A DNA stretch of 64,000 bases. Source: Escherichia coli (GTDB lineage Bacteria > Pseudomonadota > Gammaproteobacteria > Enterobacterales > Enterobacteriaceae). The notes under the pieces were generated by a model, which was not told where the DNA came from, did no database searches, and worked only from the letters and a program-made list of their open reading frames with translations. A program made the position numbers and the translations under genes. Position 1 is the stretch's first letter. Every line of letters begins with the position of its first letter. The stretch is taken from assembly GCF_030384885.1 (NCBI RefSeq), contig NZ_CP128613.1. One strand, given 5' to 3'. Shown piece by piece: positions 2,933 through 7,234 of this stretch.

Positions 2933-3484
2933 ATGCAAGATTCCATTCTGACGACCGTAGTGAAAGATATCGACGGTGAAGTGGCCACGCTGGAGAAGTA
3001 CGCCGGTAATGTGCTGTTGATTGTCAATGTCGCCTCAAAGTGTGGCTTAACGCCGCAATATGAGCAGTTGGAGAATATTCAGAAAGCCTGGGCCGATCGT
3101 GGTTTTGTGGTGTTGGGATTCCCGTGCAACCAGTTTCTGGAGCAAGAACCGGGCAGCGATGAAGAGATTAAAACTTACTGCACCACTACCTGGGGGGTGA
3201 CGTTCCCGATGTTCAGTAAGATTGAAGTTAATGGCGAAGGACGCCATCCGCTGTATCAAAAATTGATTGCCGCAGCGCCGACGGCAGTCGCGCCGGAAGA
3301 GAGCGGATTCTATGCCCGTATGGTCAGCAAAGGTCGTGCACCGCTGTACCCTGATGATATTTTATGGAATTTTGAGAAATTTTTAGTTGGCAGGGACGGA
3401 TTGGTCATCCAGCGTTTTTCCCCGGATATGACGCCGGAAGATCCCATTGTGATGGAAAGCATTAAACTGGCGTTGGCGAAATAA
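2933..3484 (+). CDS. btuE: Glutathione-peroxidase-family thioredoxin/glutathione peroxidase
   Basis: 183-aa ORF with GPx-family motifs ([26 protein letters not shown]); AGGAG SD; stop overlaps btuD start (TAATG). Confidence 0.95.
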
Positions 3485-4233
3485 TGTCTATTGTGATGCA
3501 GCTACAGGATGTTGCGGAATCAACCCGCCTTGGGCCGCTTTCTGGCGAGGTTCGGGCTGGGGAGATCCTGCATCTGGTGGGGCCGAATGGCGCGGGTAAG
3601 AGTACCTTACTGGCGCGAATGGCCGGAATGACCAGCGGTAAGGGAAGCATTCAGTTCGCGGGGCAACCACTGGAAGCATGGTCCGCAACAAAACTCGCGC
3701 TGCATCGCGCCTATCTTTCACAACAACAGACGCCACCGTTTGCAATGCCGGTCTGGCACTACCTGACACTGCATCAGCACGATAAAACGCGTACCGAACT
3801 ACTGAATGATGTCGCAGGGGCGCTGGCTCTTGATGACAAACTCGGACGTAGCACCAATCAACTTTCCGGCGGCGAATGGCAACGCGTACGTCTTGCTGCG
3901 GTGGTGCTGCAAATCACACCACAAGCCAATCCCGCAGGCCAATTACTACTTCTTGATGAGCCTATGAACAGTCTTGATGTTGCGCAACAAAGTGCGTTAG
4001 ACAAAATTCTGAGCGCGCTGTGTCAGCAAGGACTGGCGATTGTTATGAGCAGTCACGATCTCAACCACACCTTGCGTCATGCGCATCGGGCGTGGTTGCT
4101 AAAAGGTGGAAAAATGCTGGCCAGTGGACGCAGAGAAGAGGTGCTCACGCCGCCAAATCTGGCGCAGGCCTATGGGATGAATTTTCGCCGTCTGGATATC
4201 GAAGGTCACAGAATGCTGATTTCGACCATCTGA
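3484..4233 (+). CDS. btuD: Vitamin B12 ABC importer ATPase
   Basis: 249-aa ORF with Walker [13 protein letters not shown] signature LSGGEWQR, Walker B LLLLDEP. Confidence 0.95.
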
Positions 4234-4310: not shown

Positions 4311-4775
4311 ATGCGTTTCTGCCTTATTTTGATCACAGCACTGTTTCTGGCCGGGTGTAGCCACCATAAAGCACCGCCGCCAAATGCCAGACTTTCTGAT
4401 TCGATTACCGTTATTGCCGGTTTGAACGACCAGCTACAGAGCTGGCATGGCACGCCGTATCGTTATGGTGGCATGACGCGGCGCGGTGTGGACTGTTCGG
4501 GGTTTGTGGTTGTGACGATGCGCGATCGTTTCGATTTGCAGCTGCCCCGTGAAACCAAACAACAAGCCTCTATCGGCACGCAAATTGATAAAGACGAGTT
4601 GCTGCCTGGTGACCTGGTCTTTTTCAAAACGGGCTCCGGACAAAATGGTTTGCATGTAGGTATTTACGATACCAACAACCAATTTATCCACGCCTCTACC
4701 AGCAAGGGAGTGATGCGTTCCTCACTCGATAATGTCTATTGGCAGAAAAATTTCTGGCAGGCGAGACGAATCTAG
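4311..4775 (+). CDS. nlpC: NlpC/P60-family lipoprotein (peptidoglycan endopeptidase-like)
   Basis: 154-aa ORF with lipoprotein signal and lipobox (LFLAGC), NlpC/P60 catalytic Cys context (GVDCSGFV) and His (GLHVGIY). Confidence 0.93.
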   Translation: MRFCLILITALFLAGCSHHKAPPPNARLSDSITVIAGLNDQLQSWHGTPYRYGGMTRRGVDCSGFVVVTMRDRFDLQLPRETKQQASIGTQIDKDELLPGDLVFFKTGSGQNGLHVGIYDTNNQFIHASTSKGVMRSSLDNVYWQKNFWQARRI

Positions 4776-5021
4776 TATGTCGAAAAATGGACGGCGATGA
4801 TACATCTCCGTCCATTTACTCCTGAATACAGTAGTATTTTACAGACAAAAATACCGTATATGGATTATTCGTTTATAATCAGGATAATCTAATAAAAGGA
4901 CCCCTGAAAAAGTGGTTAACATGGAACAAATGAAAGTTACTCCTTCTGTAATTGTTATGTCTTATGGCCTCATCCCTTTTAGCCGGATACTGAAAAACAT
5001 CCTTCGAGAGGGACGGTTACC

Positions 5022-5735
5022 ATGAAGATTTTTTTGGAGAATCTTTATCGTTCTGATTGCTATTTCCTGCCGATAAGAGATAACCAGCAAGACCTTGTCG
5101 GCGTTGAGTTAATTACCCATTTCTCCAGTGAAGATGGTACGGTTCGTATACCGACGAGTCGGGTTATAGCGCAACTTACCGAGGAGCAACATTGGCAATT
5201 ATTTTCTGAGCAGTTGGAATTGCTAAAATCATGCCAACACTTTTTTATTCAACATAAACTCTTTGCCTGGCTTAATTTAACCCCACAAGTGGCTACTTTA
5301 TTATTAGACAGGGATAATTACGCGGGCGAACTATTAAAATATCCGTTTATTGAACTGTTGATTAATGAGAATTACCCGCATCTCGATGAAGGAAAAGATA
5401 ATCGCGATCTTTTGTCCTTATCGCAAATGTATCCCCTTGTGTTAGGTAATTTGGGCGCAGGCAATAGCACAATGAAAGCGGTTTTTGATGGTCTTTTCAC
5501 CCGCGTCATGCTGGATAAAAGTTTTATTCAGCAACAAATCACGCATCGCTCCTTCGAACCGTTTATTCGTGCGCTCCAGGCGCAAATTTCCCCATGTTGC
5601 AATTGCATCATCGCGGGGGGCATTGATACGCCAGAAATAATGGCACAGATTACCCCCTTTGATTTCCATGCTCTCCAGGGATGCCTGTGGCCTGCCGTTC
5701 CTGTAAATCAGATAACGACGTTGGTTCAGCGATAA
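5022..5735 (+). CDS. ydiV: Anti-FlhD4C2 factor, degenerate EAL-domain protein
   Basis: 237-aa ORF recognised as YdiV (MKIFLENLYRSDCYFLPIRDNQQDLVGVELITHF...); position after nlpC as in E. coli. Confidence 0.92.
   Translation: MKIFLENLYRSDCYFLPIRDNQQDLVGVELITHFSSEDGTVRIPTSRVIAQLTEEQHWQLFSEQLELLKSCQHFFIQHKLFAWLNLTPQVATLLLDRDNYAGELLKYPFIELLINENYPHLDEGKDNRDLLSLSQMYPLVLGNLGAGNSTMKAVFDGLFTRVMLDKSFIQQQITHRSFEPFIRALQAQISPCCNCIIAGGIDTPEIMAQITPFDFHALQGCLWPAVPVNQITTLVQR

Positions 5736-5758: not shown

Positions 5759-7234
<1,476 letters not shown>

Follow-up and report, generated by a model that had tools for sequence, protein, structure and literature searches.

A conserved short open reading frame with its stop on the ydiV start codon: a probable translated control element of the ydiV leader in enterobacteria

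The stretch of Escherichia coli DNA considered here (64,000 nucleotides (nt) of contig NZ_CP128613.1, RefSeq assembly GCF_030384885.1; hereafter the window) carries, in order, btuD (3484-4233), nlpC (4311-4775), a 246-nt spacer, ydiV (also called rflP; 5022-5735) and selO (5798-7234). In the part used as a query, the window matches E. coli strain 2013C-4282 with 100% identity. The ydiV gene, placed from the RefSeq annotation of identical or near-identical records, encodes a 237-amino-acid protein with a degenerate EAL domain, an anti-FlhD4C2 factor, and PF00563 is present in YdiV homologues. This gene and all leader features described below lie on the plus strand unless the minus strand is named. 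Our subject is an upstream open reading frame (uORF) of short length in the spacer. An earlier note on this DNA had drawn attention to an ATG at 4921-4923 that opens a 34-codon frame, MEQMKVTPSVIVMSYGLIPFSRILKNILREGRLP, whose TGA (5023-5025) overlaps the ydiV ATG (5022-5024) in the sequence ccATGAag, and these coordinates proved correct. The same frame contains a second, in-frame ATG at 4930, from which it runs for 31 codons (MKVTPSVIVMSYGLIPFSRILKNILREGRLP) plus the TGA (4930-5025), and this shorter version is the one found to be conserved. The earliest possible start of the open frame is a GTG at 4912-4914, a candidate that would give the 37-codon frame (37 amino acids) of the program-made list of open reading frames (ORFs). 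The arrangement is that of the idlP-iraD pair discussed below, with a short same-strand ORF directly upstream of the regulated gene, here between nlpC and ydiV, and with its stop placed on the downstream start (ATGA, 5022-5025).

This uORF is apparently undescribed in annotation, in Rfam or in the literature, and the kind of element that it would represent is itself already known. The sequence of E. coli K-12 is identical to the window over 4886-5040, with window position 4921 corresponding to position 1,792,121 on the minus strand of NC_000913.3. No gene is annotated at the uORF either in the curated K-12 record or in the RefSeq annotations of about 5,400 E. coli genomes; the 34- and 37-amino-acid products appear in protein collections as occasional unnamed gene calls. 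An Rfam search of the region returned three weak, chance-level matches, all far below gathering scores, and literature and full-text searches, which covered the peptide sequence as well as upstream ORFs of ydiV/rflP, gave no paper on such an element.

In E. coli taken alone, the frame is not beyond chance. Its 29 interior codons stay open in 17.5% of first-order Markov resamplings of the same sequence, and any open frame here brings the ATGA overlap with it, since the second codon of ydiV (AAG) begins with A. Significance comes only through comparison. A search that used an alignment of diverse YdiV proteins against a single GTDB representative genome for each species gave 58 loci, and the addition of S. 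enterica subsp. enterica and E. fergusonii brought the set to 60 usable species-level loci. At 43 of the 60, an ORF that begins with ATG terminates in ATGA on the ydiV start, and at seven others (Salmonella, the C. amalonaticus group and C. sedlakii) it ends in TAATG or TGATG with a 1-nt overlap. Thus 50 of 60 loci have an ATG ORF of 30-33 codons that terminates on ydiV in one of these ways; the rest comprise three that end 14-17 nt inside ydiV, two that end 7-16 nt upstream and five with no ORF. The length is 31 codons at 34 loci, 30 at eight and 33 at eight, and the ATG sits exactly at -92 at 41 loci and at -98 at eight.

The depletion of stop codons is specific to this frame. Counted over the 93 nt that precede ydiV at the 58 loci, stops number 23 in the uORF frame, where several are the terminal stop merely one codon early, versus 147 and 86 in the two alternatives; the uORF frame is free of stops at 46 loci and the alternatives at four and nine. 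All 16 clade representatives that were compared keep the frame open. With the lineages taken as independent, the joint chance of this is 10^-9.6; their common ancestry makes the figure an upper bound on the significance. Nucleotide identity across the uORF between clade representatives is only 47%, and the sole length difference among the major clades is two codons, in frame (31 versus 33). K. sacchari, Phytobacter and E. albertii have a 1-nt shift, and even there the same ATG still opens an ORF of 25-36 codons. In two of the genera in which the earlier note had proposed to look, the frame is retained together with its stop/start overlap: Salmonella has 30 codons and TAATG, Citrobacter 31 codons and ATGA. 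Enterobacter, Kosakonia, Trabulsiella, Buttiauxella and others retain both as well; the species-level scan gave no ydiV locus for Klebsiella. Taken together, the sequence comparisons indicate that the ORF is kept open by selection in most enterobacterial genera, in its start, Shine-Dalgarno (SD) sequence, frame, length and stop position.

Two further observations concern the alignment and the loci without the uORF. An initial impression that E. coli and Citrobacter differ by compensating 7-nt indels was dropped, since MAFFT aligns the two without gaps, with GCCGGAT opposite ACAGGAT. Four loci, from Enterobacteriaceae UBA7338 and Escherichia sp. ESNIH1 (L029 and L045) and from Siccibacter (L054 and L057), have a different, shorter region upstream of ydiV that lacks the uORF, and at the first two the distance between the cccAGGATAAtct motif and the ydiV start is only about 60 nt.

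When 17 clade representatives are reduced to a column-wise consensus, conservation is highest at the uORF initiation region, TaAaAaGGAAaAAATGAAa (= TAAAAAGGAAAAAATGAAA, TAAAAAGGAAAAAATG); a second conserved stretch, TGCCGG...CCC...G.GGGGCtGgCgC.ATGAT, lies near ydiV. The conserved ATG aligns with window position 4930 and not with 4921, the start favored by the earlier note. It is preceded by AAGGAA in Escherichia strain E69 and E. albertii and by ATGGAA in E. coli, E. whittamii and two related species representatives, as seen in the aligned sequences aacaTGGAAcaaATG (E. coli, E. whittamii and E1V33), aacaAGGAAcaaATG (E69) and AAGGAAaaaATG (E. albertii). The ATG at 4921-4923 is thus lineage-specific and derived, owing to a T at 4922 within an ancestral AAGGAA SD sequence. 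This single A-to-T change added an in-frame ATG and weakened the SD sequence from about -5.4 to -3.3 kcal/mol, the value for the remaining GGAA (4923-4926; TGGAA) as the SD sequence of ATG 4930. The weak SD sequence that the earlier note had described before 4921 is borne out by a pairing energy of -3.0 kcal/mol against the anti-SD sequence. Relatives have AAGGA 4-5 nt before the uORF ATG, at about -5.3 to -6.2 kcal/mol, and GGA occupies the uORF SD position in 10 of 17 clade representatives, the only GGA in the leader whose position is conserved. Another AAGGA (4896-4900; -5.3 kcal/mol), set in the A-rich sequence with which the putative leader begins at its 5´ end, lies 11 nt before the GTG at 4912; Escherichia, Citrobacter and Salmonella share it in the conserved form AAAAAAGGA(c/a)CC. 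Whether E. coli would use 4921 or 4930 is not decidable from sequence.

The peptide shows no detectable purifying selection on its amino acids, whether judged by codon positions, by the ratio of nonsynonymous to synonymous polymorphism (pN/pS) in three frames, or by identity. Within clades, changes at codon positions 1, 2 and 3 number 55, 52 and 76 for the uORF (p = 0.06) versus 173, 106 and 458 for ydiV. The pN/pS ratio of the uORF is 0.85 within clades and 0.91 between them, no better than in the two other frames, and that of ydiV is 0.18; between-clade amino-acid identity is 22% in all three frames, and conservation by codon position across the 17 clade representatives is flat (0.62, 0.61 and 0.64). 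The selection on amino-acid sequence that marks a functional small protein is thus missing from the uORF, as are the conserved peptide motif or diagnostic codons that mark a sensory leader or arrest peptide; no conserved run of regulatory codons was seen in it. With no selection on the peptide, what counts can only be that the frame is translated. The pattern points to selection acting on translation in cis and not on a protein, the signature expected of a cis-acting uORF.

One feature of codon usage in the uORF deserves mention. Rare arginine and isoleucine codons gather in uORF codons 19-29 (4984-5016). E. coli has CGG, ATA, CGA and CGG there; at aligned codon 19, Citrobacter, Trabulsiella and Kosakonia have AGG or AGA. 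The cluster may be a by-product of the conserved CAGGAT/CCGGAT nucleotides, or it could slow ribosomes just before the ydiV start.

Within E. coli, the uORF and the ydiV start lie in a near-invariant block of 131 nt (4900-5030) that is present at 99% identity or more in 5398 of 5417 genomes. Equal-sized flanks reach this identity in 15 genomes (4769-4899) and 114 genomes (5031-5161) of about 5,400. Four strains with a single mismatch in the block yielded three distinct uORF variants, all missense (S9Y, V12I and S21N in the 34-codon numbering), with no start losses and no stop gains among the three.

Several observations on the same region in E. coli stand apart from this comparison. The nlpC-proximal spacer and the 5´ region of ydiV in the window strain are themselves rare alleles (15 and 114 genomes, respectively). 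A rare variant, P0002 (14 database members), has a 1-nt insertion at the A-run/C, at about 4993-4999, which fuses the uORF frame from GTG 4912 to ydiV and predicts an extended YdiV of 274 amino acids (MVNMEQ...ILKNHPSRGTVTMKIFLEN...). The idea that the uORF is left over from a once longer N terminus of YdiV was rejected, as all homologues start at the same methionine and the 274-amino-acid form is a rare 1-nt insertion. One strain, E. coli ECJXMCRH7 (L063; NZ_CP067342.1, 2237242-2240304), is rearranged, with nlpC frameshifted and partial, selO partial and a 125-amino-acid hypothetical protein at the place of ydiV; only about 60 nt match the leader, at 86% identity. The YdiV protein evolves fast and unevenly: it is 73-82% identical to the E. 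coli protein in other Escherichia species and 48% identical in E. fergusonii, which is about as distant as Citrobacter and Salmonella. A fast-changing protein thus stands beside a leader that is near-invariant inside E. coli.

The SD sequence of ydiV itself (GAGAGGGA, 5006-5013; -8.3 kcal/mol) lies within the final uORF codons, 9-16 nt upstream of their stop, and the G-rich block G.GGGGCTGG at this site is conserved across genera. In E. coli this SD sequence is predicted to pair with the upstream UCCCUUUU, no more stably than in shuffled sequence; single-sequence folds pair it in most cases, with z from -1.4 to +1.3. On the minus strand, a consensus scan reported a terminator-like hairpin of five pairs with a T-run at 4998-5015, within the same part of the uORF. 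Such signals occur at chance level for the region (two found versus 1.0 expected), and this one is probably the mirror image of the A-run at 4993-4997.

For the uORF to act on ydiV, it must be on the ydiV transcript. In Salmonella, a 5´ end of rflP was mapped at -230 by rapid amplification of cDNA 5´ ends (5'RACE), and transcripts from the nlpC promoter also reach rflP (bioRxiv 10.1101/2020.05.29.124750). We located the G at -230 in the Salmonella sequence, and both transcript classes thus include the uORF. For E. coli, a candidate ydiV-proximal promoter or operator lies at 4861-4888, where TGGAT..N..TATAAT (TATAAT at 4874-4879) overlaps a widely conserved AGGATAA/GATAAT (AGGATAAT, 4881-4888), 40-55 nt upstream of the uORF. 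The corresponding motif, aaaCTGG(a/c)TA-N13-15-cCAGGATAA(gct), is found at about -165 to -135 in nearly all genera (L003-L060), also in those without the perfect TATAAT that E. coli, Citrobacter and Salmonella have. A promoter (-35 CTGGAT, -10 GATAAT) is one possible identity of this motif and a dyad operator for some regulator another, and a consensus promoter scan of the window did not flag the candidate at 4861-4888. Either -10 candidate would place the transcription start at about 4886-4896, upstream of every possible start of the uORF.

Transcription from nlpC could also be modulated upstream of this point. A strong hairpin followed only by UUUAC begins 12 nt after the nlpC stop (4787-4815; -19.3 kcal/mol, z -4.4 in the window), and its K-12 version is a perfect stem of 15 base pairs (-25.1 kcal/mol, z -7.8). 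This hairpin may be a weak terminator or an RNA stabilizer that sets the read-through from nlpC into the ydiV leader.

The premise of the earlier note, that ydiV is controlled post-transcriptionally, is supported by the literature. Nutrients act on ydiV partly at this level, CsrA regulates YdiV translation in Salmonella, and the E. coli gene is transcribed but poorly translated in its own host and well translated in Salmonella (PMC4173784). A CsrA site near the ydiV SD sequence is listed for S. Typhimurium (PMC4066749), and expression of stm1344 is lowered by CsrA (PMC5622320). An E. coli csrA mutant shows an increase of 1.21 log2 in ydiV ribosome footprints and of 0.77 in ydiV RNA (PMC5694010).

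We suggest that the main feature of the ydiV leader is a uORF of about 31 codons, beginning at ATG 4930 with an extra in-frame ATG at 4921 and ending on the ydiV start, and that it is probably a translated control element. It would lie on the E. coli ydiV transcript and be translated into a peptide with no function of its own; the frame-specific depletion of stops lends its translation indirect support. A ribosome on the uORF would cross and unfold the ydiV initiation region and terminate at the AUGA on the ydiV AUG, such that ydiV translation would be linked in cis to that of the uORF by termination-reinitiation, by the opening of local structure, or by both. Such coupling would presumably be positive. 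Regulators acting at the A-rich AAGGA initiation region of the uORF would then set YdiV synthesis indirectly, as for idlP-iraD. The obvious candidate is CsrA, and a CsrA input that acts through the uORF is possible. Overall, we lean with moderate confidence towards a peptide-independent regulatory uORF that is translationally coupled to ydiV in the style of idlP-iraD. The termination-reinitiation uORF of the earlier note thus survives in its geometry, to which conservation across genera can be added; its start at 4921 gives way to the conserved start at 4930, and the peptide that it encodes is not under selection.

The closest known system is idlP (ORF27)-iraD of E. coli (Park et al. 2017, PMC5574718), in which an ORF of 27 codons, compared with 31 here, lies in a long leader and its stop likewise overlaps the start of a regulatory gene. 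CsrA represses the 27-codon uORF and all of the repression is passed on by coupling (PMC5574718, PMC7652899). The proposed logic is shared, in that a regulator would act at the uORF initiation region and its effect would be relayed by translational coupling. The two systems differ in what is established: for idlP, translation, four CsrA sites, a structure that sequesters the SD sequence and full coupling were shown experimentally, whereas the ydiV uORF is a candidate known from sequence comparison. For ydiV, crosslinking and immunoprecipitation sequencing (CLIP-seq) in E. coli found no CsrA peak, our folding analyses found no conserved sequestering structure, and the gene has a moderate SD sequence of its own.

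Other systems share part of the design. The overlaps of the ATGA and TAATG type between operon genes have identical junction geometry and generally support re-initiation by the terminating ribosome, but here the upstream cistron is a 31-codon leader frame without protein-level conservation. The leader ORFs tnaC, secM, speFL, mgtL and toiL are, like the ydiV uORF, short and regulate a downstream gene in cis; they depend on conserved peptide motifs or diagnostic codons, whereas the peptide of the ydiV uORF is not conserved. In the uof-fur pair of E. coli, which Vecerek, Moll and Blasi are said to have described in 2007, a 28-codon upstream ORF is reportedly coupled to a global regulator and RyhB reportedly acts there. 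Unlike for uof-fur, we know of no small-RNA partner for the ydiV leader.

A number of observations weigh against a coupled regulatory uORF, and we collect them here. The uORF is truncated or absent in E. fergusonii, where only an 8-codon remnant is left, in Siccibacter and in a few others. Every candidate uORF start in E. coli has weak SD pairing, and earlier bioinformatic predictions would place the E. coli transcription start about 80 nt upstream of ydiV, inside the uORF (bioRxiv 10.1101/2020.05.29.124750). We had predicted that species without the uORF would have a stronger ydiV SD sequence, and this was rejected: the SD sequence is moderate everywhere, with -5.7 in species with the uORF versus -5.5 in those without (p = 0.93). 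Given that ydiV has its own moderate SD sequence, no stronger where the uORF is missing, a strict dependence on re-initiation is not indicated. RNA structure gives no help either. The fold of the E. coli leader is no better than that of shuffles (z -0.51), RNAalifold found no consensus structure among 36 species, the anti-SD helix taken from the E. coli fold is paired in 63% of cases versus 61% in shuffles, and a consensus hairpin (UGCCGG/CUGGCA plus CCC/GGG) reaches 76% versus 74% with little covariation. On these results we dropped conserved structure as evidence; modest pairing of the SD sequence is still possible. For CsrA, the change in translation efficiency in the csrA mutant (0.44) is not significant and CLIP-seq in E. 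coli gave no ydiV peak (PMC5694010), while GGA is not enriched in the E. coli leader (four versus 2.7 expected, P = 0.29). Finally, the invariance of the E. coli block at all codon positions exceeds what a peptide-independent uORF needs and points to an extra constraint at the level of the RNA.

Of the alternatives, one retains a translated uORF but reverses its sign. Ribosomes on its last codons would cover the ydiV SD sequence and AUG, so that more uORF translation would yield less YdiV. The location of the ydiV SD sequence inside the uORF, 9-16 nt before the stop, would fit such inhibition, as would a ydiV SD sequence that looks functional everywhere and is no stronger in species without the uORF, and the poor translation of ydiV in E. 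coli (PMC4173784). A pure decoy, however, would need no stop on the AUG, and the overlap kept at 50 of 60 loci is the arrangement associated with positive coupling in idlP-iraD. This last argument is weak, since the overlap follows automatically from conservation of the frame. On balance we consider an inhibitory uORF unlikely.

It is likewise improbable, in our judgment, that the conserved entity is an untranslated element of the leader RNA, with sites for CsrA, a small RNA or another factor, or a structure, and that the open frame is a by-product. Conservation that is equal at the three codon positions, pN/pS of about 0.9 and the nucleotide-level invariance of the block in E. coli are all what such an element would produce, and the A-rich AAGGA is also a CsrA-type motif in the leader of a gene that CsrA is known to regulate. 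What an RNA element does not account for is the confinement of stop depletion to one frame, the ATG at a fixed distance with a properly spaced SD sequence, a length change between clades that is only in frame, and an ORF that stays open through its poorly conserved 5´ half. Nor did we find an Rfam match, a consensus structure or significant covariation in the two hand-built helices.

A small protein with its own function in trans is very improbable: the slight excess of third-position changes within clades (55, 52 and 76; p = 0.06) and a hydrophobic central stretch in many versions could hint at one, but pN/pS is no better than in the other frames and far from the 0.18 of ydiV (0.85 and 0.91), between-clade amino-acid identity is the same 22% in all frames, and the product is unnamed in databases. 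A chance ORF without function, as might be suspected from the 17.5% openness of the E. coli frame, the weak SD sequences at all starts and the absence from curated annotation, is hardly credible against the frame-specific depletion of stops, the joint openness across clades, the conserved start and length and the species-wide invariance, and the 47% between-clade identity argues against an artefact of shared ancestry.

If the uORF is indeed coupled to ydiV, its significance lies in what YdiV does. YdiV/RflP sets whether enterobacteria build flagella, and it lies behind the nutrient-tuned bistability of Salmonella and the stochastic flagellar pulses of E. coli. Earlier work left two questions, namely how YdiV levels are set post-transcriptionally and why E. 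coli ydiV is transcribed yet poorly translated (PMC4173784). A conserved uORF on the ydiV start is a concrete, previously undescribed cis element for both, and one that can be tested by a few point mutations. The coupled uORF would be a second natural example of an idlP-iraD-style, peptide-independent arrangement, with broad phylogenetic support, and comparative conservation of a frame can detect regulatory uORFs that are missed by screens for protein-level conservation.

More speculatively, the uORF leader might read nutrient and growth status into the decision to be motile, with uORF translation, as set by CsrA and/or a trans-acting factor, gating the synthesis of YdiV. We regard this as quite doubtful at present. 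Were it true, a trans-acting factor could explain both the invariance of the block in E. coli and the poor translation of ydiV there compared with Salmonella, and the A-to-T change in the Escherichia lineage would contribute to the opposite responses of E. coli and Salmonella motility to nutrients.

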